The position numbers and the translations under genes are program-made. The notes below the pieces were generated by a model, which worked only from the letters and a program-made list of their open reading frames with translations, was not told the DNA's origin and ran no database searches. DNA of 64,000 nt from an uncultured Chloroflexia bacterium (GTDB lineage Bacteria; Chloroflexota; Limnocylindria; Limnocylindrales; CSP1-4). The stretch covers positions 131,409 to 195,408 of the forward strand of contig CAWBQM010000005.1 in assembly GCA_963790955.1 (NCBI GenBank). Direction: 5' to 3'. Positions 9,355 to 60,698 of the stretch are shown in pieces (the first letter of the stretch is position 1; each line of letters opens with the position of its first letter).

Positions 9355-9560
9355 TCGTCCCGCCATTCGCCGCGCGTGCGTCCCGTGCGCCCCGCCATTC
9401 ACTCCGCCATTTCGCCGGGCCAGTCATGGGGTGCATCAACGGACCGCTCGTTGGCCGTTTGATGCGGCCGGTGACTCGAACGGCCCAGGCCGGTGGCCGA
9501 ATGATGCGCTGGACGCATGGGATCGCGCTTCCAGCGGTCCGTTGAGTCGCCGGGCGCATA
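9355..9560 (+). repeat. Dispersed modular intergenic repeat, copy E1
   Basis: Core 9431-9560: GCATCAACGGACCGCTCGTTGGCCGTTTGATGC hairpin, GATGCGCTGGACGCATG hairpin, and terminal GGTCCGTTGAGTCGCCGGGCGCATA. The 5' extension has ccattcgcc repeats. Confidence 0.85.
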
Positions 9561-9639
9561 CGCGTCCACACCAGCCGCGAGCAAGAGCGAGAAGGAGACC
9601 ATAGAGTTCGAGGCGAAGCGGAAGCGGAGGCAGAGGCCC

Positions 9640-10101
9640 ATGCGTCTCGACTACAAGGCACGCCCCGACATCTCCGGCGCCATGGCGGCGTTGGCCGCCG
9701 CGGCACGGCGCGGCCCCCTGGAACGGGGCCTCCTCGAGCTGGTCAAGGTCAGGGCGTCGCAGATCAATGGCTGCGCGCATTGCCTCGAGATGCACACCAA
9801 GGATGCCCGCGCGCTGGGCGAGTCCGACGACCGGCTGCACCTCGTGTCGGTCTGGCGCGAAGCGCCCGTGTTCGACGATCGCGAGCGTGCCGCGCTGTTG
9901 TGGTGCGAGGAGCTGACGCTCCTGCCCGAGCGCGACGTGAGCGATGCGGTGTACGAGCGGGTCCAGGCCTGCTTCGACGAGGACGAGCTCGCCCAGCTCA
10001 CACTGACCGTCCTCGTCATCAACTCCTGGAACCGGCTCGCGGTCGGGTTCCGCGCCCCGGTCGGCACCTACGTGGCGCCCCTCCCGGCGGGGGACGAGTG
10101 A
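9640..10101 (+). CDS. Carboxymuconolactone decarboxylase family protein (AhpD-like, CxxC)
   Basis: The ATG at 9640 follows GGAGG. VKVRASQINGCAHCLEMHTKDARALGE is the AhpD-like core. Confidence 0.8.
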   Translation: MRLDYKARPDISGAMAALAAAARRGPLERGLLELVKVRASQINGCAHCLEMHTKDARALGESDDRLHLVSVWREAPVFDDRERAALLWCEELTLLPERDVSDAVYERVQACFDEDELAQLTLTVLVINSWNRLAVGFRAPVGTYVAPLPAGDE

Positions 10102-10105
10102 GCCG

Positions 10106-10894
10106 ATGACCGGGACCGCCACCGACCGCGCCACGCTCGCGGCCCGGGCCCAGACGCTGCTCGGCGCCCATCACGCTCCCGCGCCGCTCGTCCTGGCAAA
10201 CGTGTGGGACGTCGCGAGCGCCCGAGCGGTTGAGCAGGCCGGCTTCACGGCGGTCGCCACGTCGAGCCATGCGGTCGCCGGCGCGCTCGGCGAAGGCGAT
10301 GACGACAGCGCCGACGCCGAGACGATCTTCCTGTTCCTGGCCCGGATCGCTCGCTCCGTGCGCCTGCCGGTGACCGCGGATCTCGAGGCTGGTCACCGTC
10401 TCGGACCGGACGAGCTGGTTGCCCGCATGCTCGGCGCGGGCATCGTCGGCTGCAACCTCGAGGATACCGACCACCACGGTCCGGACGTCCTGGTCGAGGC
10501 CGAGCGCCAGGCGGCATTCCTGGCCGCTGTCCGGGCAGCGGCGGATCGGGCCGGGGTCCACGTGGTGATCAACGCCCGCATCGACACGTTCATCCGGCAC
10601 GCCGGCCACGAGCGGGCGCAGCTCGACGAGGCGATCCGGCGCGGCAGGCGCTACTTCGAGGCGGGGGTCGACTGTGTCTACCCGATCACCCTGAGCGAGC
10701 CGTCCGGGATCAGGTCGATGGTCGAGGCCATGCCCGGTCCGGTGAACGTCCTGGCGCGTCCGAACGGCCTATCGATCGAGGAGCTCGGGCGGCTCGGCGT
10801 CCGGCGGATCAGCTTCGGCGCGGGCCTGCACGCCCTGGCGATGGAAGCCTTCCGGTCGGCGCTCGCCGGGATCGCCGGCCGCGGGAGCGCATAG
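10106..10894 (+). CDS. Isocitrate lyase/PEP mutase family protein
   Basis: LVLANVWDVASARAVEQAGFTAVATSS...LPVTADLEAG...GCNLEDT is the typical PEP mutase/ICL superfamily pattern. Confidence 0.8.
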   Translation: MTGTATDRATLAARAQTLLGAHHAPAPLVLANVWDVASARAVEQAGFTAVATSSHAVAGALGEGDDDSADAETIFLFLARIARSVRLPVTADLEAGHRLGPDELVARMLGAGIVGCNLEDTDHHGPDVLVEAERQAAFLAAVRAAADRAGVHVVINARIDTFIRHAGHERAQLDEAIRRGRRYFEAGVDCVYPITLSEPSGIRSMVEAMPGPVNVLARPNGLSIEELGRLGVRRISFGAGLHALAMEAFRSALAGIAGRGSA

Positions 10895-10937
10895 GCTCGG
10901 CCGAGGGCACGTCCACGACGAGCGTGACTCGGGAGGC

Positions 10938-12338
10938 TTGGTCTATGAGCCAACGATGACGACCGACCCGCGCCGTTCGCCGGTGGACCGGCTCCTGGGC
11001 CCCGAACGGGCGGCCGAGCTCACGCCCGTCATCCGCCGGCTGCTGACGGTCCGGCTGCTGCGCTCGCTGGCCCAGGGCACGCTCGTCGTCGACTTCGCGC
11101 TGTACCTGCATGCCCTCGGCTGGAGTGGCGCTGCGATCGGCCTCGTGCTCGCCGGGGCGGGTCTCGCGAACACCGCTTTCGCGGTCGTCATTGGACCCCT
11201 GAGCGATCGCATCGGGCGTCGTCGGCTGCTGGTGGCGTATCAGGGCATCGCGCTCGTGACGTCGGCCGTGGCGCTCGTGTCGGCGGAGCCGCTGCTCCTC
11301 GTCCCGGCGGCGATCCTCGGTGGCTTCGGGCGGGGCGCGAACGGCACCGCCGGCGGCTTCTCGCCGGCCGAGCAGGCATGGCTGGCCGAGAGCTCCCAAC
11401 CGGCCGCTCGGCCCTGGCTGTTCGGGCTGAACAACGCGTTGGGCTTCGGCGGCATGGGCATCGGTGCCGCCATCGGCGCGGCGCCCGCCCTGCTGTCGAC
11501 ATGGCTGCCCGGCCCGCTCGCGTACCGGCCATTGTTCGCCTTCGGCGTGCTCATCGCCATCGCCGGCGGGCTCATCCTGGCCGGGACCGAGGAGCGCTAT
11601 CGGCCGACGCGATCCACCGCCGCGGAACGCTTCGAGGCACGGGACGTTCAGCGTCACGAGAACCGGCTGCTCCTCGCGCTCTCGGCGATCAATGCCGTCG
11701 GTGGGGCCTCGATCGGCCTCACCGGGCCGCTCATCTCGTACTGGTTCGCGGTCCGGTTCGGGCTGGGCCCGGAGGCGATCGCGCCGGTGCTCGCGGCGAG
11801 CTTCCTCCTCACCGGGCTGGCCTCGCTCGCGGCCGGCCGGATCGCCGAGACCACGGGCGTCATCCGCGCCGTGGTCGTTACCCGTGGGCTCGGGCTCGTG
11901 TGCCTGCTGGCGATCCCGATCGCCCCGTCGTACCCGCTGGCGGCCGCGGCCTTTGCCGGACGACAGGTCCTCAGTCGTGGCTCGGCCGGTCCCCGCCAGG
12001 CCCTGCTCGTCGGGCTCGTCCGTGAACAGCGCCGGGGCATGGCCGTCAGCGTCAGCAACGCGTCGGTCCAGCTGCCCGCGTCGCTCGGGCCGGCGGTGGC
12101 CGGCCCACTCATCGACTCGGGTCTGCTCTACCTGCCGTTCTACCTCGCCGCCGTGCTCCAGGCGGTCTTCGTGGCCGGCTACGCGCGCCTGCTGCTGCCG
12201 TACGAGCCGCCGCGGCGCGCGCGGGGCGTCGTCGCGTCAGGTGGCCGGGTCGAGCCGCAGATCGCGCGCGACGAGGTGGATCCGTCGGAGGGCGCGAACG
12301 TGCTGGACGCCCAGGCCGCGCTCGACGACGAGGCCTGA
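10938..12338 (+). CDS. MFS transporter
   Basis: 466-aa ORF with about 12 hydrophobic segments and the loop motif GPLSDRIGRRRLL. The start is uncertain (10938 or 10956). Confidence 0.8.
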   Translation: MVYEPTMTTDPRRSPVDRLLGPERAAELTPVIRRLLTVRLLRSLAQGTLVVDFALYLHALGWSGAAIGLVLAGAGLANTAFAVVIGPLSDRIGRRRLLVAYQGIALVTSAVALVSAEPLLLVPAAILGGFGRGANGTAGGFSPAEQAWLAESSQPAARPWLFGLNNALGFGGMGIGAAIGAAPALLSTWLPGPLAYRPLFAFGVLIAIAGGLILAGTEERYRPTRSTAAERFEARDVQRHENRLLLALSAINAVGGASIGLTGPLISYWFAVRFGLGPEAIAPVLAASFLLTGLASLAAGRIAETTGVIRAVVVTRGLGLVCLLAIPIAPSYPLAAAAFAGRQVLSRGSAGPRQALLVGLVREQRRGMAVSVSNASVQLPASLGPAVAGPLIDSGLLYLPFYLAAVLQAVFVAGYARLLLPYEPPRRARGVVASGGRVEPQIARDEVDPSEGANVLDAQAALDDEA

Positions 12339-12339
12339 C

Positions 12340-12515
12340 CGCGCGCCGCGCAATTCGCCGCGCGGTTCGCCGCGCCATTCACGGGGCGCATCAACGGACC
12401 GCTCGTTGGCCGTTTGATGCACCCGGTGGCTCGAACCGCACTGGCTGGTGGCCGAACGATGCGCTGGACGCATGGGATCGCGCTTCGGACGGTCCGTTGA
12501 GTCGCTCGATGCATA
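12340..12515 (+). repeat. Dispersed modular intergenic repeat, copy E2
   Basis: By eye about 85-90% identical to the E1 core over roughly 130 nt. It overlaps the 3' end of the minus-strand oxidoreductase gene. Confidence 0.85.
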
Positions 12516-13641
12516 TGGGGCGGAGCTGCCCCGTGGCGCCCCGCGCCTCCATGTCGTGGCGCGCCCGCCGGCCGGCCAGGCGGGTGGCGATGCCGTCCAC
12601 GACCTCGGCCGCGTCGGCGCCCACGCCAAGGACCAGCGGCGACACGAAGCCGGTCTGGAACGGCAGCCCGACGAACGACAGCCCGGGCTCGCTCAGGACG
12701 ACGCCCCGCCGGTGTCGTGGCAGGCCGCTCGGCTCGAGCACCGGCAGGTGGATCCAGTCGTACGCGGGGCGGAACCCGGTGCACCAGACGACCGAGTCCG
12801 GCTCGAGCATCCGTCCGTCGGCGAGGACCGGCCGGCCATCGCGCGCGCCCTCGACCCGGGCCACTCGGTCGACGCCCGCGCTGTCCAGGTCGGACCGCCG
12901 GACGCGGATCACCGGGGCCGAGCCGTGCTCGCCCATGCGCTCGCGCATCCCGCGCCCGATCGGCGTATCGAGCGTCAGGACCCGCTTCGCGAACGCGAAG
13001 AACGGGCGCCCGTTCCCGATGCGGGCGATGCGCGGGAGGAACGTGCTCTTCCCGGCGAGGCTGACCCGACGATCGGCGCGGGCCAGCTCGAGAGCGATCT
13101 CCACGCCCGAGTTGCCGCCACCCACGACGAGAACCGAGGTGCCGGGCACCGATCCCGGGTCCCGGTAGGCGGCGCTGTGGAGCTGCCGGATGCCCGGGTC
13201 GAGCCTGGCGGCGAACGGTGGCACGAAGGGGGCGGACAGGAACCCGGTGCTCACGACGACCTCGCTCGCCGCGTAGCGTCGATCTCCGGCCACGAGGACG
13301 AACCCGCCCTCGGACCGCTCGAGGCTGTCAACCCGGACGCCATGCTCGATCGGGGCGTGGTTGCGTGCGGCGTACTCGGCCAGGTAGTCGGCCATCTGGT
13401 CCCTGGTCGGCAGGGCCGCCGCGGGAAGCGGGAACGGCATCCCGGGCAGCCCGTCGATCCCGGCCGGCGTGAACAGACGCAGGGAGTCCCAGCGCTCGCG
13501 CCAGGCGTCGCCCACCCGGGCGCCGGCATCGAGCACGACGTGCTCGACCCCCATCCGGGTCAGGTGGTGGGACGTCGCGAGGCCCGCCTGTCCGCCCCCG
13601 ACCACGACCACGTCATGACGCGCGGGCACCGAAGACACCAT
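12391..13641 (-). CDS. FAD/NAD(P)-binding oxidoreductase (flavin-containing monooxygenase-like)
   Basis: The start is taken at MVSSVPARHDVVVVGGGQAGLATS (dinucleotide-binding motif), with a second GGGNSG motif. The N-terminal 56 aa of ORF 12391..13809 are discarded. The stop lies inside repeat E2. Confidence 0.75.
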   Translation of the reverse strand: MVSSVPARHDVVVVGGGQAGLATSHHLTRMGVEHVVLDAGARVGDAWRERWDSLRLFTPAGIDGLPGMPFPLPAAALPTRDQMADYLAEYAARNHAPIEHGVRVDSLERSEGGFVLVAGDRRYAASEVVVSTGFLSAPFVPPFAARLDPGIRQLHSAAYRDPGSVPGTSVLVVGGGNSGVEIALELARADRRVSLAGKSTFLPRIARIGNGRPFFAFAKRVLTLDTPIGRGMRERMGEHGSAPVIRVRRSDLDSAGVDRVARVEGARDGRPVLADGRMLEPDSVVWCTGFRPAYDWIHLPVLEPSGLPRHRRGVVLSEPGLSFVGLPFQTGFVSPLVLGVGADAAEVVDGIATRLAGRRARHDMEARGATGQLRPICIERLNGPSEARSHASSASFGHQPVRFEPPGASNGQRAVR

Positions 13642-13642
13642 C

Positions 13643-14128
13643 TCAGTTGGCCTCCATGGTCGTTGCGGTATGGTCGGTCGACGCGCCGCCGGCATCGGGC
13701 CCGGCGAGCCCCGGGCCGTAGCCCAGCTGCACGAGCATCCCGAGCTGGTCAGCCACGCCCCAGTGCTCGGCGACGCGTCCGTCCTCGATGCGCGCCAGGT
13801 CGAACACATCGACCACCACGCGCTTGCCGGTCGGCGCGAGGCCGTTGACCGGCCCGGTGCTCGTGCCGGCGACCCGTATTCGCAGCCACACGCGATCGCC
13901 CACGACGGTCAGGTCCTCGATCGCGAACTCGAGATCGGACAGCCAGCCATGAAGCCTGGACACGAACTCGTAGACGCCCGCGACACCCTGCCCGTGGCCG
14001 CGCTGGTGCTCGATGCAATCCGGGGCGACAAGCTCGTCGATGATGGACCGATCGTTGCGGGCGAACCCCTCCTCGATCAGCCGGTGCATGCGGCCTGCCA
14101 CGTCGGGGCTGGTCGGCGATTTGAGCAT
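13643..14128 (-). CDS. SnoaL-like/ester cyclase (NTF2-like fold) protein
   Basis: IIDELVAPDCIEHQ...DLTVVGDRVWLRIRVAGT...DVFDLARIEDGRVAEHWGV is the typical pattern. Confidence 0.75.
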   Translation of the reverse strand: MLKSPTSPDVAGRMHRLIEEGFARNDRSIIDELVAPDCIEHQRGHGQGVAGVYEFVSRLHGWLSDLEFAIEDLTVVGDRVWLRIRVAGTSTGPVNGLAPTGKRVVVDVFDLARIEDGRVAEHWGVADQLGMLVQLGYGPGLAGPDAGGASTDHTATTMEAN

Positions 14129-14161
14129 TTCGCACCCATCTTGAAGTCGACATCCAATCGG

Positions 14162-14176
14162 TAGAGTGTCACTCTA
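14162..14176. promoter_or_regulatory. Perfect 7-1-7 palindrome TAGAGTGTCACTCTA, candidate TetR operator in a divergent promoter region
   Basis: It lies between the divergent SnoaL-like (start 14128) and TetR (start 14202) genes. TACTAT at 14190-14195 sits 6 nt before the ATG, which suggests a leaderless TetR mRNA. Confidence 0.5.
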
Positions 14177-14201
14177 TCCGCTAGTTCTGTACTATAGCGA
14201 G

Positions 14202-14909
14202 ATGTCCGAGGCTGTCAACCCGAGACCGAGCCTGCGCGCTGAGCAGGCCGCCGTCACACGCCGCCGCATCGCGGACGCCGCGCGTCTGCTGTTCGTGCGC
14301 GATGGCTACGGCGCCACCACGCTCCAGTCGATCGCGGACGAGGCCGGGGTCGCAGTGCAGACGGTGTATGCCGTCTATCGCTCCAAGGCCGGGATCCTGC
14401 GCGAGCTGCGCGACGGGATCGTGTTCCTGCCGGACGCCGATGAGCGTTTTCGCGAGGCACTGGCATCCGCGGCGGCCGGCGACCCGGGTGCCGCCCTCGA
14501 CTCGTTCGCCCGGTCGATTCGTGTCCGCTGGGAGATCGGCGCCGACGTCGTCCTGGTCACTCGGGACGCCGGCTCGACCGATCCCGAGCTGCGCGACGAG
14601 GCGAACAAGCCGTACGAGCGACGACGCGACGGCTTGCGCACCCTGGTCGACGCCCTGCGCCGAGGTTTACGCCAGGGCCTGGAAGGCGAAGACGCGATCG
14701 GCGCGCTCGATGCCCTGACGCTGCCCGACGTGTACGTCGAGTTGGTCCGCGGGCTGGGCTGGTCGGCCGATGCCTACGAGGCCTGGCTCGCGCGCTCGCT
14801 GCGCCGATTGCTGCTCGCGGTCGAGATGCCGAGCCAAGAGAGGGCCGTGGTTGGAAGCCCTGCTGGGCAGGGGGTTGGCGGCGATCGAGGTCGAGGGGCC
14901 CGAGGTTGA
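14202..14909 (+). CDS. TetR/AcrR family transcriptional regulator
   Basis: RRRIADAARLLFVRDGYGATTLQSIADEAGVAVQTVYAVYRSKAGIL is the TetR HTH. The C-terminal roughly 30 aa run into the PIN remnant and may not be native. Confidence 0.8.
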   Translation: MSEAVNPRPSLRAEQAAVTRRRIADAARLLFVRDGYGATTLQSIADEAGVAVQTVYAVYRSKAGILRELRDGIVFLPDADERFREALASAAAGDPGAALDSFARSIRVRWEIGADVVLVTRDAGSTDPELRDEANKPYERRRDGLRTLVDALRRGLRQGLEGEDAIGALDALTLPDVYVELVRGLGWSADAYEAWLARSLRRLLLAVEMPSQERAVVGSPAGQGVGGDRGRGARG

Positions 14910-15094
14910 TGATTGGCCGCGGATGGCCGCGCTCGTCGAGAAGTACGGCGACTTCCCACTCCGGTGGGACGGACGCCTCGGTTGCCGTCCTGGCCGATCG
15001 GCTGGGTAGCGACACGATCGTCACGCTCGATCGACGCCATTTCGGAGCCCTTCGCTCGCCGAGCGGCCGCCCGCACCGACTGCTGCCGGACTAG
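14848..15094 (+). pseudogene. PIN-domain (VapC-like) toxin remnant, C-terminal half only, frameshifted
   Basis: LLGRGLAAIEVEGPEVDDWPRMAALVEKYGDFPL is in frame 1, and TDASVAVLADRLGSDTIVTLDRRHFGALR...LLPD is in frame 2. No N-terminal PIN half is present. Confidence 0.55.
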
Positions 15095-15134
15095 CGGCGG
15101 CGAGCCAGTCGTTGGGCCGCCGGTGGGCCGTCGG

Positions 15135-15318
15135 GCCATGCGCCGCCCGGGCCGTCAAGGGCATGCGCCGCACGGCCGCCATGCGTCCCACGCATCAACG
15201 GACCAGCACGAGCGCCACCTCATGCACCGGACGCATGAGGCGGCCATTGAGCGTCCGAGATATGCACCGGGCGCATCGGATCGCGACTGCGAGCGTCCGT
15301 TGAGTCGCTAGGTGCATA
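15135..15318 (+). repeat. Dispersed modular intergenic repeat, copy E3
   Basis: Contains CACGCATCAACGGACC, several ATGC...GCAT hairpin units, and the terminal CGTCCGTTGAGTCGCTAGGTGCATA. Confidence 0.8.
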
Positions 15319-15349
15319 TACCGACGGCAACGCGGACGGGGCCGGCCCC

Positions 15350-15865
15350 TCAACAGTCGAACGCGAACCAGCACAGCTCGTTGCGCAGCCGCTCGTCGTC
15401 GAGCACGAGGTCCCGGATCTCGTCGGGCAGCTGGTCGCGCTGCCACCGGCACTCCGAGCGGCCGGCCGCCTGGCCCTCGTCATCGGGCGCGGCCGCTCGC
15501 GCCGCCCTGATCGCGTAGGCCGCGGCACCGAGCTCGTGAGCTGCCACATGGCCGACCGCGGCGGCCTGGCCGGCAGCGTAGGCGGCGTGGCGTGCTGCCC
15601 CGCGCAGGTCTCTTGCCGCGGCGTTTGCATGGCCGGCGGCGGTGCGCGCCGCTGCCCACCTGACCTCGCCCCGTGCCCAGGCGCGCCCGAGCTCGATCGC
15701 CCGACGCGGACGGTCGTCGCCAGGCCGGGCCTGCTCGAAGTGATGCAGCACGTGCTGCGCGCAGTCGGCGGCCCATACCGCGAGCAGGTGGTGGTCCCGG
15801 TCCTCGAGGCTGCCACCGCGTCGCACAGTGATGAACCTGGGATCGCGGGCCTTGGGCAGAATCAC
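15350..15865 (-). CDS. Ala-rich helical-repeat protein resembling the family labelled 'putative immunity protein' (Imm-5-like)
   Basis: 171 aa with no signal peptide: HHLLAVWAADCAQHVLHHFEQARPGDDRPRRAIELGRAWARGE...AAYAAGQAAAVGH. It lies 9 nt downstream of the nuclease gene. Confidence 0.5.
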   Translation of the reverse strand: MILPKARDPRFITVRRGGSLEDRDHHLLAVWAADCAQHVLHHFEQARPGDDRPRRAIELGRAWARGEVRWAAARTAAGHANAAARDLRGAARHAAYAAGQAAAVGHVAAHELGAAAYAIRAARAAAPDDEGQAAGRSECRWQRDQLPDEIRDLVLDDERLRNELCWFAFDC

Positions 15866-15874
15866 CTCATCGGC

Positions 15875-16774
15875 CTATTCGCAGCCCATGCCGTCGTGAT
15901 CGCCGTCGAGGCGGTAGTCGTCGGGGCCGATGACGTGGACGGGCGCCTTGCCCATGGCGCGCACATCGGGGCAGTTGAGGTCGTCGACGATCGGCAGGCA
16001 CGGCGTGTACGACGGGTGGCAGCTCGAGGGCTTGGCGGTCGAGGTAGTCGTTGGCCCCGGCGTCGGCTTCGCGGTGGGCGCGGTCGTGGGGGCAGGCTCG
16101 TTCCATAGACCGAGCTCGGCGTCGCGCGCCTGGCCCTGGGCCGCCAGGAACAGATCGACGTAGCGCACGTCGGGCGGGTAGGTCGCGACTTGTGCGAAGC
16201 CCTCCTGCACGAGCGCGAGGTTGACCATGGTCCAGCCCGACGTGGCGGCCGAGTCGGCCAGCCACACGTAGCGCAGCAGGCGTCCGTAACGGTCGGTCTC
16301 GGACACGTCGCTGCTCGAGCAACACGGTTCGGCCCTCGACGAGGGCCTTGTTCGCGGCGCTCGCTTCGGGGCCCATCGGCTGCACGGGCCGGCTCGGATC
16401 GACGGTCTCGGGCGTGTCCATGCCGATGTAGCGCAGCTTCTCGTGGCCGATGCCCGCGATCGACGTAGGATCGTGTCGCCGTCGACGACCCGCACGACAA
16501 GGGCCTCCTCGGTCGCACCGATCGGTGCGGCGCCGAAGGAGGGCTCGACGGCGGGCGAGGGGCTCCGCGTCGGGCTCGCGGCGAGGCTCGGGCTGAGGCT
16601 CGCGGCAGCGAACGCGCTCGCGCTGGCAACCTCGATCGCGGCCGTCCGCCCGGGGATCGACGGCGGCGTCCCGGCACCCGTCGGGCCGCTGCATGCGGCC
16701 GCGAGCAGCGCGACGAAGACGAGCAGCAACGGCGCGGGGAGCCAGAGGCCCGGCAGTCGGCCACGCCGAGTCAT
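15875..16774 (-). CDS. Thermonuclease (SNase-like) lipoprotein with Excalibur-like C-terminal tail; two compensating frameshifts (near 16465 and 16315)
   Basis: The lipobox is LLAAAC. VVRVVDGDTI and DRYGRLLRYVWL are in this frame, while GHEKLRYIGMDTPETVDP...ANKALVEGRTVLLEQ is in the frame of ORF 15867..16973. The tail reads YRLDGDHDGMGCE. Confidence 0.7.
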   Translation of the reverse strand: MTRRGRLPGLWLPAPLLLVFVALLAAACSGPTGAGTPPSIPGRTAAIEVASASAFAAASLSPSLAASPTRSPSPAVEPSFGAAPIGATEEALVVRVVDGDTILRRSRASATRSCATSAWTRPRPSIRAGPCSRWAPKRAPRTRPSSRAEPCCSSSDVSETDRYGRLLRYVWLADSAATSGWTMVNLALVQEGFAQVATYPPDVRYVDLFLAAQGQARDAELGLWNEPAPTTAPTAKPTPGPTTTSTAKPSSCHPSYTPCLPIVDDLNCPDVRAMGKAPVHVIGPDDYRLDGDHDGMGCE

Positions 16775-17325
16775 CAGTAGGGAGTCCCGCTCGGAACGAG
16801 GTAGACCTTGTGCTCGCCGGCGACCTGGATACAGATCTCACGGTGGGCACCGGGCGGAATGCCAGCATAGTTCGACGCCGTCGCCGCGAGCCAGCCATCG
16901 GCGAAGACCACGATGTGAGCGGGAACGTCGATGTCGTATTCCGGCGGGCTGACCGGCCCGAAGACGCCGACATACTGCCCGATGTCCCGGGCCCTTGCGA
17001 CGTCGACTTCGGCGGTGACGGGCCCCATCGAAGAGTCGCACGCAGCCGACGTTACGGGCAACGGCAGGACCTGGTGATCCCGTTCCCAAGCGCATTCCTG
17101 TTGCCAGGGATCGGGCGTCGACTCCCACGCCCCGCAACTCCGAGCAAACAGGACCTGCCCTGGCTGCAACGTCGTCACCTTCGGGATGTGCTGCGAGCTC
17201 CTCAGCCCGAGGACGAGCCCGACGAGCACGAGCACGCCGACCGTGCTCGGCAGGTAGCGGCGAGGCCGAGGTGTCAACGGGAGTCGCCCTGGACCCGCTC
17301 GGCCACGCCGGGTGAGTTCCGACAT
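16774..17325 (-). CDS. Membrane-anchored hypothetical protein (first gene of the nuclease operon)
   Basis: The start is taken at MSELTRRGR, with one TM segment (VGVLVLVGLVLGL) and then a Cys-containing domain. Its stop overlaps the nuclease ATG (TGATG). Confidence 0.5.
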   Translation of the reverse strand: MSELTRRGRAGPGRLPLTPRPRRYLPSTVGVLVLVGLVLGLRSSQHIPKVTTLQPGQVLFARSCGAWESTPDPWQQECAWERDHQVLPLPVTSAACDSSMGPVTAEVDVARARDIGQYVGVFGPVSPPEYDIDVPAHIVVFADGWLAATASNYAGIPPGAHREICIQVAGEHKVYLVPSGTPY

Positions 17326-17446
17326 CCGCACGACCTTCGATCGTCGTTGACGCCCATGCCAGCCGTGGTCCGGCCGCACTCGACCTTACTCCGCCATCGG
17401 ACGAGTAGCGATGGGTCACTGGTCATGTCTGACAGGGATCGGCGGC

Positions 17447-17917
17447 TCAGCGATCCCCGGCGTGCGGCGGGGGATTGAGGATGGCCCCGCGCAACCGCGC
17501 CAGATCGCGCGCCGAACGCTCAAACCATGGCCTCCGGTGCGGGTCGATTGGCGATGCCTCGAACGCATCGCCGGCATAGCGTGGATAGAGGTGCAGATGC
17601 AGGTGCGGGATCGTGTTGCCGTGGATCTCGTAGTTGAGCTTGGTCGCGTCCGTCGCTCGCTGCACCGCGGCGGCGACGCTCGATACCTCGTCCCACCAAG
17701 CCGCTCGATCCGCGCCGACCAGCTCGTAGGGCTCCGTCACGTGCTTCTTCGAGACGACACAGACGTAGCCCGGGAGCGGTGCCTCGGCCGCGGCGGTGAC
17801 CCAGCTCGATCGCAGCTCGACGAGCACGTCGAGGGGCGCGCCTCGAATGCAAATCGGGCACGTCTGTCCCGTCGGCGGGGTCGGTTCCGCAGGTGTCGGC
17901 TCTTCAGGGCCGGGCAT
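17447..17917 (-). CDS. HIT (histidine triad) family protein
   Basis: The start is taken at MPGPEE. GYVCVVSKKHV and HLHLHLYPR are the histidine triad. The upstream part of ORF 17447..18310 covers repeat E4 and is discarded. Confidence 0.8.
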   Translation of the reverse strand: MPGPEEPTPAEPTPPTGQTCPICIRGAPLDVLVELRSSWVTAAAEAPLPGYVCVVSKKHVTEPYELVGADRAAWWDEVSSVAAAVQRATDATKLNYEIHGNTIPHLHLHLYPRYAGDAFEASPIDPHRRPWFERSARDLARLRGAILNPPPHAGDR

Positions 17918-17965
17918 GGGTCGACCATACGCTCCCGGCCGCCCGACCGGCGCCCCCGGCCCGGC

Positions 17966-18178
17966 TATGCGTGACGCGCATCTACGAGCCAGTCGAGGCG
18001 TCAAATCATGCGCCCGACGCATGAAGCCGCCAACCACGGCCGGGAATATGCGCCGGACGCATCGGATGGCGCCGCGAGCGGTCCGTTGAGTCGCCCGGTG
18101 CATAGCGGCGCGGGCGGTCCGGACCGTTTGAGTGGCCGGGTGCATAGGGGCGCGGTCCGGTGAGTCTCCCGGTGCATC
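17966..18178 (+). repeat. Dispersed modular intergenic repeat, copy E4
   Basis: ATGCGCCCGACGCAT and ATGCGCCGGACGCAT hairpins, then three consecutive ...GGTCCG(T)TTGAGT..GGTGCAT units. Confidence 0.85.
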
Positions 18179-18182
18179 CGCT

Positions 18183-18539
18183 TCACTCGTTCGATTTCGG
18201 ATGAGCAAGATCGACGAGCGTGATCCACACCACGCGGGAGTTCTGGTCAGGGCAGTAGAAGACGCGTCCGGCGCCCGAGATCTCGTGCTGCCACTGGGGC
18301 AGCTTCCCATCGCCTATCCACTTCTCGGCGAGCGCGCCCTTGAGCCGATGGGTTCGATTGGGATTGTCAGAGCGATCGAGTGGCCGCGTCCGAAGTCGTT
18401 CGCGAACGGCGCTCATGAGCTGTGGTTCGGCCGCCATCGCCTGTTGCCATTGCTTGAGGGCTCGAGCCGAGGCCGGTCGGATCGTCCACGTCCCCTTGCT
18501 CGGCGGTCGTCCGGGTGCCCGGTCGGGTCGCCTCGGCAT
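18183..18539 (-). CDS. Putative RelE/ParE-superfamily-like toxin
   Basis: 118 aa: THRLKGALAEKWIGDGKLPQWQHEISGAGRVFYCPDQNSRVVWITLVDLAHP. It lies downstream of a Phd-like antitoxin gene. Confidence 0.5.
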   Translation of the reverse strand: MPRRPDRAPGRPPSKGTWTIRPASARALKQWQQAMAAEPQLMSAVRERLRTRPLDRSDNPNRTHRLKGALAEKWIGDGKLPQWQHEISGAGRVFYCPDQNSRVVWITLVDLAHPKSNE

Positions 18540-18554
18540 CGGCGGCGCCTGTCG

Positions 18555-19028
18555 CTACAGCTCCGCGTCGGCGAGCGGCGTCTGCTCCCTGGCCAGCAGC
18601 GCGGCGCGCGTATCGGGATCCGCCCACGCCTCGGCGGTTGCGCGCCAGTCGTCGATCAGGATCTCGACTGGACGGAGCGAGGTGCCGGAGGCCGCGATCA
18701 GGAGCGCCTCCGCCAGCTCGTCGAGGCACTGCCGCCTGTCGTCATCGGGCAGCGCGCTCAGCCACGAAAGGCGCCCGTATGCACCCGGGGAGTTGAGGCC
18801 GAGTTGATCGAGTGCCTGGCGCGCGCGAATCAGTTCGACTGCGAGGTCCTCGATCTCGTCAGTTCGCTGGATGTCGGCGGCCGGCGCGAGGATCAGGGCG
18901 GTGCCATCCTTGTCTCGGACGATTGCCCGGCCCTTTCTGGCCGCGTCGATCACCTCGCGGTGATGACGGGCCAGATCGGTGGCTTGGTAGGCGACGACGG
19001 ACTCGCTCGCCCGGGCGGCTGCTGACAT
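18555..19028 (-). CDS. Antitoxin, Phd/YefM-like N-terminus with DUF6247-like C-terminal domain
   Basis: VVAYQATDLARHHREVIDAARKGRAIVRDKDGTALILAP is Phd-like. It is followed by a helical C-domain. Confidence 0.6.
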   Translation of the reverse strand: MSAAARASESVVAYQATDLARHHREVIDAARKGRAIVRDKDGTALILAPAADIQRTDEIEDLAVELIRARQALDQLGLNSPGAYGRLSWLSALPDDDRRQCLDELAEALLIAASGTSLRPVEILIDDWRATAEAWADPDTRAALLAREQTPLADAEL

Positions 19029-19087
19029 GATGACCGATCATACGCATGATCGTGCATGTGGTCAACGGTTGCTGCCAGGTGTTCGCC

Positions 19088-19250
19088 CGGCGCATCGCTG
19101 CGTCAAGTCATGCGCCCGACGCATGAAGCCGCCAACCACGGCGCGGAATATGCGCCGGACGCATCGGATGACGCCGCCAGCGGTCCGTTGAGTCGCCCGG
19201 TGCATAGCGGTGCCGGTCAGGCGCGGTCCGTTGAGTCCCCCGCGCATACG
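19088..19250 (+). repeat. Dispersed modular intergenic repeat, copy E5
   Basis: By eye about 95% identical to E4 over the first roughly 108 nt (5 mismatches counted). Confidence 0.85.
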
Positions 19251-19261
19251 CGCCGCCCTCA

Positions 19262-19291
19262 TTGACAGAAGTGGCTACTTCTGGCTAGATG
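19262..19291 (+). promoter_or_regulatory. Candidate promoter/operator of the Phd-VapC operon
   Basis: TTGACA at 19262-19267, inverted repeat GAAGTggctACTTC at 19268-19281, and TAGATG/CTAGAT at 19285-19291. The ATG is at 19297, so the mRNA may be leaderless. The -10 hexamer is imperfect. Confidence 0.35.
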
Positions 19292-19296
19292 TGGCC

Positions 19297-19551
19297 ATGA
19301 AGCGTGTTGGCGTGGCGGAGCTCAAGAACCATCTGTCGAGTCATCTGCGAGCCGTCGAGGCAGGCGGCGAGGTCGAGGTCACCGACCGCAATCGGGCAAT
19401 CGCTCGAATCCTGCCCGTTGGCGCCGGGAGCCGTGTTTCGGTTCGTCCGCCGCGTCGCCCGTTCGCGTCCATCCGGGACAAGGCGTATCCGCCGGCCGGT
19501 TGGTCCGCGAGCTCGAAGGAGCTCCTGCTCGAGGACCGCCAGGCGCGGTGA
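19297..19551 (+). CDS. Phd/YefM family antitoxin
   Basis: MKRVGVAELKNHLSSHLRAVEAGGEVEVTDRNRAIARILP is the classic Phd N-terminus. Confidence 0.8.
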   Translation: MKRVGVAELKNHLSSHLRAVEAGGEVEVTDRNRAIARILPVGAGSRVSVRPPRRPFASIRDKAYPPAGWSASSKELLLEDRQAR

Positions 19552-19967
19552 ATGCCTACGTCGACTCGTCGGTCCTGCTGCGGATCGTCCTCGGCGAACC
19601 CGAGCCGCTGCCCTCATGGCCGCACATCGATCGGGCGGTGTCGAGCGAGATGATCCGGCTCGAGTGCCTCCGGACGCTCGATCAGGCGAGGGTCCGACTG
19701 CACATCCCCGACGTCGAGGTCGCCCGCGTACGCGCCTCCATCCTGGAGGCGATCGATGGCCTCGATCTCGTGGCGCTAGGGGCAGACGTGCTCGAGCGGG
19801 CCGCGGAGCCGTTCCCGGTGCTGATGGGTTCGCTCGACGCACTGCACCTCGCGACCGCGATCCTCGTGCGCGACCGGTTCGACGCGCTGGCCTTCGTCAC
19901 GCACGATCGTGAGCTGGCCATCGGCGCGCGGTCGATGGGCTTCGAAATCGACGGAGTCGAGATCTAG
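19548..19967 (+). CDS. vapC: PIN-domain toxin VapC
   Basis: The GTG start overlaps the antitoxin stop (GTGA). The sequence reads VNAYVDSSVLLRIVL...SLDALHLATA...FVTHDRELA. Confidence 0.8.
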   Translation: MNAYVDSSVLLRIVLGEPEPLPSWPHIDRAVSSEMIRLECLRTLDQARVRLHIPDVEVARVRASILEAIDGLDLVALGADVLERAAEPFPVLMGSLDALHLATAILVRDRFDALAFVTHDRELAIGARSMGFEIDGVEI

Positions 19968-20753
19968 AGGCGCCCGGACCCAAGACGGCCGCGAAGACTA
20001 GGGATCGCCAAGCAGCCCGCCGGTCCGTCGGCGGTAGGCCAGGTGACGACCGTGGCGCCCGATCCGATCGACCAGCCGGTGCGCTCGAGGCAATACGCCG
20101 CCCGCATCGCGAGCCGCTTCGAGCGGCCTGATGCGGCGACGATATCGGCCGTGGTGAAGGTCGCCGGCAGGCCGTCGGGCAGCAAAAGCAGCAGGTCGGC
20201 CGGTGTGTCGATGCGGCGCGTCTCGACGACCTCGACGAGGCGCCGGTCGAGGCGCCACCAGTCGCGGGGATATCGATACCGTGCGCCGGCCGGAACCGGC
20301 CCCCGGATGTCCTCCTCGCACGTGAGCAGCAACTCGATCCGGAAGTTCGGGTGGGCGATCAGCGCCGGGAGGTGCACGAGCTCGTCGAACAGGTCGAGCG
20401 GGAGCGCGCGCTTCGGCGATCGGCGGCGGCGGACGATCACGCCGTCGGCATCGACGAGGGCCAGCCACTTCTCGAGCGGCATCGGGTGCACGAGCGCCAC
20501 GCGGTGGCGCTCGACGAGCCGCTCGAGCTTGCGCCGCACACCCGCGAATCCCGCGGTCTGGATCTCGACGAGCTCGTCGCGACCCGCGACGTCGATCACG
20601 AAGCCGTCGACCGCGACCTCGACGCGTGCCCCGACGACGCTCTCGTGCGTAGCGCTCTTTGAGCGCGGCGTGCAGGGAGCCTTCACGGAACGTCGTGATG
20701 CCGTGCGCCGCGCCGTTGCCCGGAGGCGTCGCGGTCTGACGTGGCGCGTGCAC
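19964..20753 (-). CDS. Hypothetical protein, possible PD-(D/E)xK-like nuclease core plus C-terminal wHTH-like region; one frameshift near 20650
   Basis: GTG at 20753: ...ITTFREGSLHAALKERYA in one frame, then HESVVGARVEVAVDGFVIDVAGRDELVEIQT...VALVHP in the frame of ORF 19964..21118. The D...E-x-Q spacing is the only basis for the nuclease idea. Confidence 0.45.
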
Positions 20754-20945
20754 CGCCCGACCGTAGCAAGTCCGCCTCGCCCCGCCGGTCCATGGCGGGA
20801 CCTGGCAGCCGGCCGCGCCGTAACCCAACCGAAAGTCGTCGTCATCGATGCTCCGGCCGTCACCCGTCCGTCGCCGCGGACCGCGCCGGGGCCACGGCCG
20901 GACGACCGGCGCCTCGCAGGCGGCCCCGACCGATGACGAAAGGAC

Positions 20946-22910: not shown

Positions 22911-22987
22911 CGGTCGATCCGACCCGACGCCCACCGATTGAGGGTCAACGCCGCCGCCGCGCGCTTGCTCTGGGCCAATCTATTTGC

Positions 22988-23029
22988 TTGACAACGCAAC
23001 TAGTTCGGCCTAGCCTACCGGTAGTTGCG
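22988..23029 (+). promoter_or_regulatory. Candidate promoter with flanking inverted repeat upstream of doxX
   Basis: TTGACA (22988-22993), a 17-nt spacer, then TAGCCT (23011-23016). CGCAACTA (22995-23002) and TAGTTGCG (23022-23029) form an inverted repeat. Confidence 0.35.
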
Positions 23030-23136
23030 GAAGCAACGATCGCTCCGCTGGCCGGCGTGGATGGCGCGGAGCACGTGGTCCGGATCAAAGGATCTGGCAC
23101 GGACCGACCTGGATCCCACAGGAGGCGACTCTCTCA

Positions 23137-46305: not shown

Positions 46306-46414
46306 GGCGACTGCCCGGACGTCGGCTGTGAGGCGACCCCGCCCGCAGTGAGCACCTTATGCGTTTGTCGGCCGTGAACTGAACCGACGCCGCACGGCGA
46401 TACTCAGATGAAGC

Positions 46415-50338: not shown

Positions 50339-50452
50339 CCGTCGCGGGCCGGGCGTCCCGTTTGCGGTCCGCACCGCCTCGCGCCGTCACGCCTCGCACC
50401 GCGACGCCCCGCTCCGCGACCGGCACGCCTCGCACCGCCAGGCCGCGCCACG

Positions 50453-50593
50453 TTATGCACGTGGTGACTCTACGGTTCGTCGGGCGGGCCGAATGATGCA
50501 CCCACTGACTCAGGCGGCCGAGAAGTCGCGCCAAGTGAGCCACCGGACGCATAGGGCGGCCAATGAGCGGCTCGTTGATGCGTGGGGTGCATA
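50453..50593 (-). repeat. Dispersed modular intergenic repeat, copy E9 (inverted orientation)
   Basis: The reverse complement reads ACGCATCAACGAGCCGCTCATTGGCCG...CCGGTGGCTCAC...GTAGAGTCACCACGTGCATAA. Confidence 0.8.
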
Positions 50594-54305: not shown

Positions 54306-56040
54306 ATGAGCGACCCGCTCGATCAACAGCTCGTCGAGGCCGTGCTGGCACGCCCTCGGCGTGGCAAGGCCGAGCTGGAGGAGGCGAAGCTCGCGGGTCT
54401 CCGACCGCGTCGCGCGGCGGCGGTCGATGAGGACGAAACCGAGGACGCCGACAGCGTCGATGCCGAGGACGACGACGTCGAACTGGAGCTCGACGCGGAT
54501 GACTCGGGCGAGGTCAGCATCGAGGTGATCGGCGAGGGCGGCGAGCCCGTCGCGGGCGCCGCGCTGGCGACCGTCGAGGAACCGACCAAGCTCGACGCGG
54601 CCGAGCTCGAAGAACCGACGCCGGAGGAGCTCGACGCGCTCTCGGCGGACATGATCGGGATCGACGACCCGGTCCGGATGTACCTCAAGGAGATCGGCAA
54701 GGTCGCCCTGCTGACCGCCGAAGAGGAGGTCGTGCTCGCCAAGGCGATCGAGCTCGGCGAGCAGATGGTCGAGGAGCCGTGGAAGGCCATGGTCAGCCTC
54801 CACGAGTGGACCCTGCACGACACCGAGCGCAAGACTCGCACGCAGAAGCCGCAGCACCGCCTGCCCTTCGGCGACGAGGCCCACCACATGGTGCGCGAGG
54901 CGTTGAGCGATGCCTGCGGCCGCGGACCTGTTCGTGGCACCGCCCGACTTCCACCTGGTCAGGGCCGCGAAGGATGCGCAGTCCGAGGGCACCAAGGAGC
55001 TGCTCAAGCAGGCCAAGAAGCTGATCGCGGCATACAACGTCGACTGCGAACCGGCGGCCTTCATCACCCTGCTCGACTGGGCGTACCTCGCGGTCCACAA
55101 CGGCGACTTCGACTCGCGCGACAACCCGGGCCTGCGGGCGATCGCCGAGTGGACCCGCGACGGCGTCGCGTTTCCGGCCCTCGAACGCTGGATCACAGCC
55201 GGCAACGATGCCGATCTGCTCAAGCGCCTGGGCTACGACCCGGAGGTGCCGCTCAACACCAAGCTCGCCCACCGCAAGGGCGAGATCGTGCGCATCGGGC
55301 GCGACGCCCGCGAGCAGCTGACGTCCGCCAACCTGCGCCTCGTCGTATCGATCGCCAAGAAGTACATCGGGCGCGGGATGTCGTTCCTGGATCTCATCCA
55401 GGAAGGCAACATCGGCCTGATCCGCGCGGTCGAGAAGTTCGACTACGAGAAGGGCTTCAAGTTCTCGACGTATGCGACGTGGTGGATCCGCCAGGCGATC
55501 ACGCGCGCCATCGCCGACCAGGCACGCACGATCCGCATCCCCGTGCACATGGTGGAGACGATCAACCGGCTCATCCGGGTCTCGCGGCAACTCCTCCAGG
55601 AGCTCGGCCGCGAGCCGACCGTCGAGGAGATCGCCGATGCGATGTCCAAGGGCCAGGAGGTCGTCGTCACGCCCGAGAAGGTGCGCGAGATCATCAAGGT
55701 CTCACAGGAGCCGGTGTCGCTCGAGACCCCGATCGGCGAGGAAGAGGACTCGCACCTGGGCGACTTCATCGAGGACCGCGGCGCGCTGGCGCCGGCCGAG
55801 GCCGCGTCGCACCAGCTTCTCAAGGAGCAGGTGGAGGCGGTTCTGGATTCGCTCACCGGCCGTGAGCGCCGGGTCCTGCAGCTGCGCTTCGGGCTCGAGG
55901 ACGGCCGCGCCCGAACGCTCGAGGAGGTCGGCAAGGAGTTCAACGTCACCCGCGAGCGGATCCGCCAGATCGAGGCCAAGGCGCTTCGCAAGCTCCGCCA
56001 CCCGAGCCGCTCCCGCAAGCTCAAGGACTACCTGGAGTAG
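54306..56040 (+). CDS. rpoD: Primary (group 1) sigma factor RpoD/SigA with a large insertion between regions 1.2 and 2; one frameshift near 54910
   Basis: The ATG follows [22 protein letters not shown] is region 1.2, in the frame of ORF 54144. [13 protein letters not shown]...[12 protein letters not shown]...[13 protein letters not shown]...[18 protein letters not shown] is in ORF 54910..56040. Confidence 0.9.
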
Positions 56041-56126: not shown

Positions 56127-56268
56127 TTATGCACCCAGTGGATCAACCGACCGTCCGTTTGCCGCTTCATGCGGCCACCGACTCATTCCGCCACTGGTAC
56201 GCGCGGCCTGAGTCGCGTAGAGACTGAAACCCCCATCGAGCGGTCCGTTAGAGTCGCCCGGCGCATGA
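56127..56268 (+). repeat. Dispersed modular intergenic repeat, copy E10
   Basis: TTATGCACCCAGTGGATCAACCGACCGTCCG...CGGTCCGTTAGAGTCGCCCGGCGCATGA. Confidence 0.8.
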
Positions 56269-56966: not shown

Positions 56967-57093
56967 GCCTGCACCATCGTCGCCGGCTCCGCTTCGCGTG
57001 CGTTTTCGAGCTGCCGTCGGGGCGATCATCGGAGTGTGAGCGAGCACGAAACGTGCAGAGAGATCGCCGCGAAAAGTGCAGAGGCGATCAGCG

Positions 57094-58912
<1,819 letters not shown>

Positions 58913-59281
58913 GTGTGATTTCCCGACGCCCGGCGGTCCGAGGAACAGCGCGTTGCGGTGCTCCTCGACGAAGCGCAGCGTGGACAGCTCCGCGATCACG
59001 GCCCGGTCGATGGACGGCTGGAAGTCGAACTCGAACTGCGCCAGGCGCTTGTCGAGCGGATAGTGGGCGAAGCGGAGCCGCCCCGAGAGCCGCCGGGCGC
59101 TGGTCGCCTCGACCTCGGCCGCGAGCAGGCGCTCGAGGACCTCGACCGGGGCTGCGGTCTCGGTGCTGGCCCGCTCGAGCTCACCCGCGAGGTGCTCGGA
59201 CGCCGTCGAGAGGCCGAGATACGCGAGGTGCTCCCGGGTGCGCGCGTACGCGGTCGCGACCCGGGACTCGGCGGCGGTCAT
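58913..59281 (-). pseudogene. istB: istB, N-terminal part up to Walker A
   Basis: MTAAESRVATAYARTREHLAYLGL...FDFQPSIDRAVIAELSTLRFVEEHRNALFLGPPGVGKSH. The ATG overlaps the istA stop (ATGA). Confidence 0.8.
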
Positions 59282-60324
59282 CGCGCGAGCTCCGCGTACA
59301 CCGCGAGCGGCCGGACCTCGACGGTCTCGCCGGCCGCGGCGGGCGTCCGCCGTGCGGTCGCGGGCGCCGGCAGGGGCACGAGGGTGTCCGCGCCCTCCAT
59401 CCGCGCGACCAGCCGGCCGCTGACGGGCACGAGGAGCGGGCGCTCGGCCTCCCATGCCTCGCCGACGACCCGCCCGGTCGTCCGGTGGCGGCGCCTCGCC
59501 TGGACCCCGGTCGCCCAGGCCCTCGCCTGCGCGTCGTACCAGGCGAGCGTCGGGTGCTCGGGGATCACCTGCCCCGTGAGCCAGGCGAGGAGGTCGTGCT
59601 TCACCTCGCGGATGACCCGCTCGACCTTGCCCTTCGTCTGGGCCCGGTACGGCCGGCAGGCGCGCGGGCGCGTGCCGAGCAGGGCCGCGACGTCGAGCCA
59701 CTCGGGCGCGTAGATCGGCGCGCCGTCCGCGCGGGATCCGGCCATGAGGGCCGTGTCCCGGTCGTGGAGGAAGTCGGCCGTCGCGCCGCCGAGGTCGTCG
59801 ACGCAGCGGACGATGCTGCGCAGGGTCGTCGGACGGGTCTTGTCGGTCGCGAACCGGACCGCGACCATGCGCGAGCAGCCGAGGATCGCGACGAACGCGA
59901 AGAGCTCGGCCGTCCCGTCACCGAGCGGCCACGAGCCGAGGTCGGCCCAGTCGCCCTGGGTCTGCTCGCCGGGATCGGTCTCGAAGCGCAGCACGGGCTC
60001 TGCCGCGGTCGCCGGGCGGAGGATGACCACCCGCCGGCGCAGGCTCCCGTACGACCCGGTGTACCCGTATCCCTCGGTGAGCTCGCGCAGGAGCACGGTC
60101 GCGCGCAGGTCGGGACACGCGGTCAGGCGCCGCTCGACGTGTGCCAGCTGGGCCGCCGTGAGCTCGGCCGGTCTCGCCCGCGGGCGGTACCCCGGGGGCT
60201 CACCGGCGGTCGCGTACTTCTTGGCCGTGCGCCAGTTGAGTCCGAACTCGCGGGCGAGGTCGGCGATCGACCAGCCGTGGCGGTGCAGTGCGTGCAGTTC
60301 CATCCAGGTTTCCTCAGACTGCAA
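59278..60324 (-). CDS. istA: IS21-family transposase IstA
   Basis: MELHALHRHGWSIADLAREFGLNWRTAKKYA is the HTH. QGDWADLG...AILGCSRM...DRDTAL are DDE-region patterns. The start is at 60324 or 60303. Confidence 0.8.
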   Translation of the reverse strand: MQSEETWMELHALHRHGWSIADLAREFGLNWRTAKKYATAGEPPGYRPRARPAELTAAQLAHVERRLTACPDLRATVLLRELTEGYGYTGSYGSLRRRVVILRPATAAEPVLRFETDPGEQTQGDWADLGSWPLGDGTAELFAFVAILGCSRMVAVRFATDKTRPTTLRSIVRCVDDLGGATADFLHDRDTALMAGSRADGAPIYAPEWLDVAALLGTRPRACRPYRAQTKGKVERVIREVKHDLLAWLTGQVIPEHPTLAWYDAQARAWATGVQARRRHRTTGRVVGEAWEAERPLLVPVSGRLVARMEGADTLVPLPAPATARRTPAAAGETVEVRPLAVYAELAR

Positions 60325-60534
60325 CTCGTCCCTCCTGTCCCGTGCTCAGAGCTCGACACTCCGAGCCTGACAGGAGGGACCTCGTCGTTTCCGGCCCCAT
60401 GGAAAGGCCCCCGGATCACTCCGGGGGCCTCTGCACTTTTCGTGATCAACCCTCTGCACTATTCATGGGCGCTCACACGGACGCTTATCCGGGCCGGAGG
60501 TCGACATGGCTGGGCAACGGGAGCGAGCTCGCTT

Positions 60535-60698
60535 GCGTTGATGCCCACGGCGCCGCCTGAGTCGCGGGGCGAATGAACGGACCGTCCGTCGGCCACTTGA
60601 TGCACCCGAGGACTCGGTCGGCGTTGGTCAAGGGCGATTTGAGCCGCCTGGTGCATGACATGGCCCTCGGCCGGTCCGTTGAGTCGCCGGGCGCATGA
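60535..60698 (+). repeat. Dispersed modular intergenic repeat, copy E11
   Basis: GTTGATGCCC...GAATGAACGGACCGTCCGTCGGCCACTTGATGCACC...CCGGTCCGTTGAGTCGCCGGGCGCATGA. It lies directly beside the IS21 right end. Confidence 0.8.

Follow-up and report, generated by a model that had tools for sequence, protein, structure and literature searches.

Proteobacteria, Neisseria, pneumococci, cyanobacteria, and Deinococcus all have well-known small intergenic repeats of palindromic form. The Correia/NEMIS repeats of Neisseria and the pneumococcal RUP are miniature inverted-repeat transposable elements (MITEs) with long terminal inverted repeats; they measure 100 to 160 bp, are non-coding and intergenic, occur in both orientations, are flanked by TA, and are able to form a long hairpin. 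ERIC is an imperfect palindrome of ∼127 bp along the whole element and is present as diverged intergenic copies common to several genera. Here we describe a family of eleven repeats (E1 to E11) in a 64,000-nucleotide stretch of contig CAWBQM010000005.1, from an uncultured bacterium of the Limnocylindria (Chloroflexota); this stretch is referred to below as the window, and all copy counts and positions are those of the window only. The copies are dispersed, non-coding, present in both orientations, bounded by terminal inverted repeats, and built as a mosaic of modules, and they therefore fit the REP/BIME- or MITE-like class suggested in an earlier note on this DNA. The reading that we favor, and consider on balance probable, is a lineage-specific, DNA-level, non-autonomous palindromic repeat family of the MITE, REPIN-BIME, ERIC, or Correia kind. 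Judged by its sequence, the family is new to the libraries searched, and the kind of element is already known.

The earlier note had placed eleven elements of 130 to 210 bp in this DNA, and the same eleven were found by two kinds of model. An nhmmer profile built from eight copies gave exactly 11 matches of ∼140 nt (E 8e-13 to 9e-36) and no others in the 64 kb, and a covariance model (R1) built from the 11 copies recovered the same set at 91 to 126 bits. The elements are thus real, but the proposed length holds only in part: the conserved core is ∼140 nt, and the extra length of E1 to E3 (on the 5′ side) and of E4, E5, and E8 (on the 3′ side) consists of degenerate extra modules or short tandem repeats. 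E5 is the exception to full length, as it matches the profile from position 34 on and its left end is missing. The proposed common terminal module was borne out, with eight matches to GGTCCGTTGAGTCGCCSGGYGCATR at ≤3 mismatches compared to 0.00 in 100 dinucleotide-preserving shuffles, as was the occurrence of both orientations, E8 and E9 lying on the minus strand and E1 to E7, E10, and E11 on the plus strand. The 11 copies are spread over 51 kb among unrelated unique genes, at a density of ∼1 copy per 6 kb. Their positions, with the evidence for each, are as follows.

9421 to 9560, plus strand: E1 core, 140 nt (nhmmer, E = 9.6e-36; covariance model, 116 bits)
12376 to 12515, plus strand: E2 core (nhmmer, covariance model)
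15180 to 15318, plus strand: E3 core, between convergent TetR and Imm5-like genes (nhmmer, covariance model, Pfam)
17966 to 18104, plus strand: E4 core (nhmmer, covariance model)
18114 to 18178, plus strand: E4 tail, two extra direct terminal modules at 18114 to 18146 and 18152 to 18178 (module nhmmer)
19101 to 19206, plus strand: E5 core, without the left terminal module (profile positions 34 to 140; nhmmer)
19223 to 19248, plus strand: E5 tail, one extra terminal module (module nhmmer)
25690 to 25829, plus strand: E6 core, leading member of a tandem pair, in the divergent gap that separates a BNR-repeat gene from def (nhmmer, covariance model)
25852 to 25991, plus strand: E7 core, second of the tandem pair (nhmmer; 87% identical to E6)
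46174 to 46312, minus strand: E8 core, between a response-regulator/cyclase gene and an ECF sigma gene (nhmmer, Pfam)
50454 to 50593, minus strand: E9 core, upstream of a DnaJ-domain gene (nhmmer, covariance model, Pfam)
56128 to 56267, plus strand: E10 core, 88 nt past the rpoD stop, convergent with an HTH gene (nhmmer, Pfam)
60560 to 60697, plus strand: E11 core, ∼80 nt outside the left inverted repeat (60412 to 60478) of an IS21 element (nhmmer)

The element comprises four copies of a ∼25-nt module, ATGC-RCCSGG-YGACTCAACGG-NCC, as seen in the alignment and in a module scan of both strands. The layout is two-plus-two, with two modules on the left arm and two, inverted, on the right arm, and with module starts ∼42 nt apart. 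The linkers between modules pair with each other (GCCA/TGGC), and the whole element is therefore an imperfect palindrome. The alignment gives the consensus nATGCACCCnGCGCATCAACGGACCG..CGTT.GCCA..T.ATGCGCCCGG.GACTCA..CGGC [loop] GCCG...GAG.CGC.GG..GCATCG.ATGGC.C.TCGA.CGGTCCGTTGAGTCGCCCGGTGCATA. Its outer pair of modules forms the terminal inverted repeats (TATGCAC...GTGCATA), the left end ATGCACCC.GCGCATCAACGGACC matching the reverse complement of the right end GGTCCGTTGAGTCGCCCGGTGCAT, and its inner pair forms subterminal repeats. The reverse strand of every copy also matches the profile (E 5e-7 to 1.5e-21). When the alignment is laid out as a hairpin of 51 pairs, 80.6% of cells are paired, compared to 30 to 34% with the partners slid by 1 to 3 columns; folded individually, most copies form one long hairpin (z, −1.3 to −4.1), with E5 as the exception (−0.6).

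Within this plan the copies vary considerably. The earlier note had read each copy as three to five direct units ending in GCAT, a description that suits E3 to E5 but misses the inverted two-plus-two palindrome that is the general plan. The small hairpin that it reported, ATGCG-N5-CGCAT (15 nt), is indeed enriched (eight occurrences versus 0.26 expected), but all occurrences are in E1 to E5, and the longer hairpin GCATCAACGG..CCGTTTGATGC, attributed to several copies, is exact in E1 and E2 only and degenerate in E11. In E3 to E5 a variant of the module forms a small hairpin of its own (ATGCGCCNGACGCAT); in its general 25-nt form the module lacks self-complementarity. The tetranucleotide ATGC/GCAT is invariant and is paired in the small hairpins, and the right terminal module is the best-conserved part of the element. 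E1, E2, E8, and E11 have a different left end, with a direct GAGTCGC segment. Pairwise identity averages 61% (range, 46 to 87%), and the flanks of the copies are unrelated. Within the proposed subfamilies, the close pairs are clear, namely E1/E2 (87%), E4/E5 (82%), and E6/E7 (87%), but the grouping of E10 with E6/E7 is not, as their identity of 59 to 60% is no closer than that of E10 to other copies. The closest pairs are physical neighbors, which fits local spread or duplication, and E6 and E7 are a tandem duplicate with a period of 162 nt.

The borders of several cores carry further repeated sequence. On its 5′ side E1 has a degenerate extension (9355 to 9420) with partial modules, the left end of E2 adjoins a 12-nt tandem repeat (12344 to 12380, 37 nt) after the stop of an MFS gene (12338), the left end of E3 adjoins a 25-nt tandem repeat (15125 to 15175), the terminal GCATGGCGGGGT of E8 is present again at 46154 to 46178, and E11 is followed by a 21-nt tandem repeat (60689 to 60768). 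Tandem repeats with units of 12 to 25 nt in 2 to 4.5 copies adjoin 6 of the 10 loci, at the three tandem-repeat positions just given for E2, E3, and E11 and at 25549 to 25679, 46095 to 46178, and 50375 to 50448, and some are duplications of the end segment of the element that contains GCAT.

Hairpins of this kind could function in DNA or in RNA, and a family of structured small RNAs or intrinsic terminators was the other possibility raised in the earlier note. The elements are hairpin rich, several copies have better folds than shuffled sequence (z as low as −4.1), and both sides have changed in 18 of the 51 pairs; the covariation, however, comes mostly from one subfamily switch (E3 to E5), and the same alignment had served to derive the structure. 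Under a symmetric definition of pairing, G:T mismatches in the hairpin (53) are as frequent as A:C mismatches (50), so the two strands are equivalent, which argues against strand-specific RNA structure; both strands also fit the model. A previous count of 62 G:T versus 28 A:C was rejected, since the pairing had been chosen with G:T allowed and was biased. No hairpin followed by a T-run and no terminator-like site was found in the 17.5 kb from 9000 to 26500, which hold seven copies, and some copies lie in divergent gaps. A search of the whole window against Rfam gave 0 matches at gathering thresholds, and at an E of ≤5 (9300 to 26100) no element was matched; a tRNA scan gave no result. An RNA or terminator family is very unlikely.

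Complementarity between arms points in the same direction. Watson-Crick complementarity of an arm with the opposite arm of its own copy is 69.5%, compared to 65.5% with the arms of other copies (whole-arm permutation, P = 0.003), and forced ungapped pairing of the arms gave no excess of complementarity within copies. The own-arm excess is slight, which makes the palindrome chiefly a feature of the family consensus, as would be expected of repeated recognition sites. Compensatory evolution copy by copy was considered, as the shuffle control was strong (0/500), but was not retained in view of the whole-arm permutation, and selection on individual hairpins is not claimed.

Comparison with the described families places the element between several of them. 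It resembles Correia/NEMIS and RUP in its size, lack of coding, occurrence in both orientations, terminal inverted repeats of ∼25 nt, TA flanks, and long hairpin, but it is GC rich, unrelated in sequence, and represented by much more diverged copies, and its symmetry runs through the whole element by way of a second, inner pair of the same module. With ERIC it shares an imperfect palindrome along the whole element, an intergenic location, and diverged copies; unlike ERIC, it is absent from every relative sampled, and the two are unrelated in sequence and phylum. REP, BIME, and REPIN sequences combine inverted short modules, semi-conserved linkers, larger hairpins, and tandem clusters and are extragenic and species specific (Di Nocera et al. 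2013, PMC3733652; Bertels and Rainey 2011, PMC3116915). The present family is similar in its inverted modules, tandem clusters, density of ∼1 per 6 kb, occasional supply of the 3′ end of an open reading frame (ORF), and species specificity. A REP unit is a stem-loop of 20 to 40 nt, and here a stem-loop is seen in the ATGCG-N5-CGCAT variant (15 nt) of E1 to E5 and not in the general module; the consensus lacks the unpaired GTAG or CGTC tag; and the two-plus-two layout differs from the single head-to-head dimer of a REPIN. As the tag is absent, and with a general module that is no stem-loop, the element is not a REP by the criteria of PMC3733652, and strict membership of the REP family has to be given up. 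The same source describes TIRYT, moderately abundant palindromic repeats with long terminal inverted repeats that are linked to tyrosine transposases, and the present family, too, is recognized by its long terminal inverted repeats and not by a REP tag. In size and coding capacity (a core of ∼140 nt that codes for nothing) the element corresponds to a MITE, and in architecture (a mosaic of inverted units, conserved linkers, and tandem amplification) to a BIME, the units themselves not being REPs.

The position of the copies relative to genes was assessed with a gene finder based on codon-position GC and with Pfam, by which ∼79% of the window is coding. The claim that all copies are intergenic or overlap only gene 3′ ends is largely upheld: 9 of the 11 cores are contained in non-coding gaps over their full length, and the other two overlap ORF extensions that lack homology. 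E2 is at a 3′ tail, as an FMO-like ORF reads through it and gains ∼50 codons beyond the end of the PDB homologue 4usr_A (window positions 12391 to 12550), and it seems to have taken the place of the native 3′ end of that gene. E1 overlaps the start of an ORF; this start is doubtful, and the Pfam CMD domain of that ORF begins at residue 50. The loci are convergent (E2, E3, and E10), tandem (E1, E4, E8, and E9), or divergent (E5 and E6/E7), with E11 beside an IS21 end, a mix that is roughly that of random placement in intergenic DNA. The neighbors range from toxin-antitoxin and accessory genes (E1 to E5) to def, dnaG, and rpoD.

This context bears on two further explanations. In the first, the modules are architectural or regulatory sites of the host that bind a nucleoid-associated protein, gyrase, or a regulator, or a hairpin in the transcript stabilizes or punctuates mRNAs, as proposed for REP/BIME and ERIC; such a role is compatible with a mobile origin. 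The spacing of module starts (∼42 nt) is roughly four helical turns, the ATGC/GCAT and GGTCCGTTGAGTC blocks are strongly conserved despite an overall identity of 61%, 7 of the 10 loci lie downstream of at least one gene, and the copies are old and have persisted. Set against this, copies are also present in divergent promoter gaps, the neighboring genes have no function in common, there is neither wobble-pair asymmetry nor a terminator tail, and, as the family is absent from every related genome sampled, the class does not share it as a conserved regulatory feature. Host sites are an unlikely primary explanation, if one that deserves some weight.

The second explanation, that the copies are attC-like recombination sites of an integron or attC cluster, is suggested by their form. 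The VCRs of Vibrio, too, were originally reported as an intergenic repeat. Like attC sites, the elements are imperfect palindromes of ∼120 to 140 nt, E1 to E7 are co-oriented, the right-arm GTTGAGT fits the right-hand core of attC, GTTRRRY, and the left-arm CATCAAC fits the left-hand core, RYYYAAC, at 6 of 7 positions. A 7-mer so degenerate is, however, expected by chance an estimated ∼0.26 times per element, and conservation extends 16 nt past the putative right-hand core. Genomic context largely refutes the attC reading: the copies flank housekeeping genes (rpoD, dnaG, and def), they are spaced 1 to 20 kb apart with intervening genes on both strands, E8 and E9 have the opposite orientation, and the Pfam scan of window ORFs showed no integrase gene. 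The chance that this explanation is correct seems close to negligible.

Several searches addressed the distribution of the family outside the window. The C-terminal region of the window RpoD is 91 to 93% identical to proteins of metagenome-assembled genomes (MAGs) labeled Chloroflexota or “Candidatus Limnocylindrales.” Of 10 window proteins looked up, 9 are in the protein collection, on an NCBI/ENA contig of 243,984 bp, and 8 of these 9 are singletons at 90% identity; thus, no close relative is known. Neither the profile nor the covariance model found family copies in ∼145 kb from nine related loci on at least seven distinct contigs, comprising neighbors of RpoD (L017 to L019), neighbors of the BNR protein (77 to 78% identity; L021 to L026, the last four of which are contigs with an identical protein and the same neighboring genes), and a related IS110 locus (L030). 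A covariance model match at positions 3650 to 3814 of L024 (33.7 bits, on structure alone) was dismissed as an assembly artefact, as it is a perfect ∼160-nt palindrome at a contig end. The exact IS110 protein is found on one contig only, and its 88%-identical relative in L030 is without the element.

Larger collections were scanned with the 18-base degenerate pattern TCCGTTGAGTCGCNNGNNGCAT, which matches 6 of the 11 window copies (for IMG/VR, the pattern was one base shorter). The scans gave singletons only, with 5 in 185,579 GTDB species genomes, 11 in JGI metagenomes, and 2 in IMG/VR, and only one of these looks homologous. This is a full-length, diverged homologue of ∼160 nt with TATGC...GCATA ends (L001, positions 342 to 500; Chloroflexota MAG BP_610, JAXDLE010000110.1), which is intergenic, between efp and xseA, and is the only plausible homologue that was found outside the window. 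The relatives without copies, the singletons, and this homologue therefore indicate a family that is restricted in lineage but has at least one distant relative in another part of the phylum. A BLAST search of PLSDB plasmids and a full-text literature search for the motif gave no match, and together with the Rfam result they agree with the failure of the earlier note to recognize a named repeat or Rfam family.

A purely local duplication or assembly artefact would account for the closest pairs being neighbors and for the failure of the genome scan to turn up any other contig of the source genome, and the assembly does contain at least one frameshifted essential gene. Yet the copies are only 46 to 87% identical and have unrelated flanks, two short Logan contigs from the same run (ERR11718636) match the window at 99.9% without gaps, and a diverged homologue is present in another MAG. 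An artefact of this sort is highly improbable.

We therefore return to a mobile palindromic repeat of the MITE or REPIN-BIME kind and propose how it may have arisen. We infer both mobility and a cognate enzyme, which could be of the DDE type (acting on double-stranded ends, with a TA target) or of the HUH/Y1 type (acting on single-strand hairpins). A recombinase or transposase encoded at another place in the genome would bind the modules in trans and would have spread the element into intergenic DNA. Divergence, tandem duplication (E6/E7), gain of extra end modules (E4 and E5), and loss of an end (E5) would have followed. The ends of the element mostly read T/ATGC...GCAT/A, and because TA is its own reverse complement, it is indistinguishable from the inverted repeat.

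Several observations weigh against this proposal. First, no target-site duplication could be demonstrated, and the inverted symmetry seems to extend a few bases outward. Second, the window contains no transposase with element-like ends, as the inverted repeats of the IS21 element differ and IS110 has none. Third, the collections contain no genome of the same species and therefore offer no empty site for comparison. Fourth, conservation is higher in the right terminal module than in the left one, an asymmetry not expected of a simple symmetric MITE. Fifth, judging from the mean identity of 61%, the copies are old, without a recent burst. A Pfam scan of 60 window ORFs showed no RAYT (Y1 transposase) gene. 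The ends of the IS21 element were considered as a source of E10 and E11, but its inverted repeats (57034 to 57100 and 60412 to 60478) are unrelated to the element.

A more specific version of the proposal would be a REPIN-like replicator system of a new, untagged type, in which two-plus-two modules bounded by ATGC/GCAT are served by a single-copy domesticated recombinase and the tandem duplications of element ends (6 of 10 loci) are footprints of cleavage and rejoining. We regard this version as speculative and distinctly improbable.

Other features of the window were noted. rpoD (54306 to 56040) is split over two frames, with residues 1 to 202 of a 578-amino-acid homologue in frame +3 up to 54908 and residues 208 to 578 in frame +1 from 54925, which reflects either an indel introduced in sequencing or a genuine frameshift in this essential gene. 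In the IS21 element (57034 to 60478), an IS110 family element (transposase gene at 57533 to 58582, minus strand) is nested inside istB, with IstB profile positions 3 to 108 at 58802 to 59281 and positions 107 to 234 at 57094 to 57576. The same istB::IS110 junctions are found in an unrelated ENA contig (L030, positions 6366 to 7835; 82% nucleotide identity), which suggests either that istB is targeted site-specifically or that a composite element has been inherited. A large sensor kinase that contains many GAF domains is broken up into three ORFs in succession (38097 to 44489); its repeats of ∼530 nt are spaced by 528, 530, 531, 531, and 526 nt, not all of them multiples of three, and frameshifts or assembly indels are therefore likely. 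A 62-nt tandem repeat in a non-coding gap (1651 to 1818; 2.7 copies, 90% identity) is unrelated to the element family. Finally, a RibD_C/dihydrofolate reductase family protein (7708 to 8271) falls in a cluster (≥90% identity) of 999 members, the named ones all from Streptomyces, unlike the other eight window proteins found in the collection, which are singletons; this pattern points to a recent horizontal transfer.

The host of the family is an uncultured soil lineage of the Limnocylindria (Chloroflexota), a class for which no small palindromic intergenic repeat was found described in the literature searched. At present the family is a descriptive addition and establishes no new principle. Its density of ∼1 copy per 6 kb nonetheless matters for the assembly and binning of soil Limnocylindria MAGs, as a short-read contig of the same run stops ∼110 nt before E6, and the repeat could be used to mark strains. 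Gene ends are altered as well, E2 supplying a tail of ∼50 codons. If a cognate enzyme were found, it would widen the range of partnerships between repeats and transposases.

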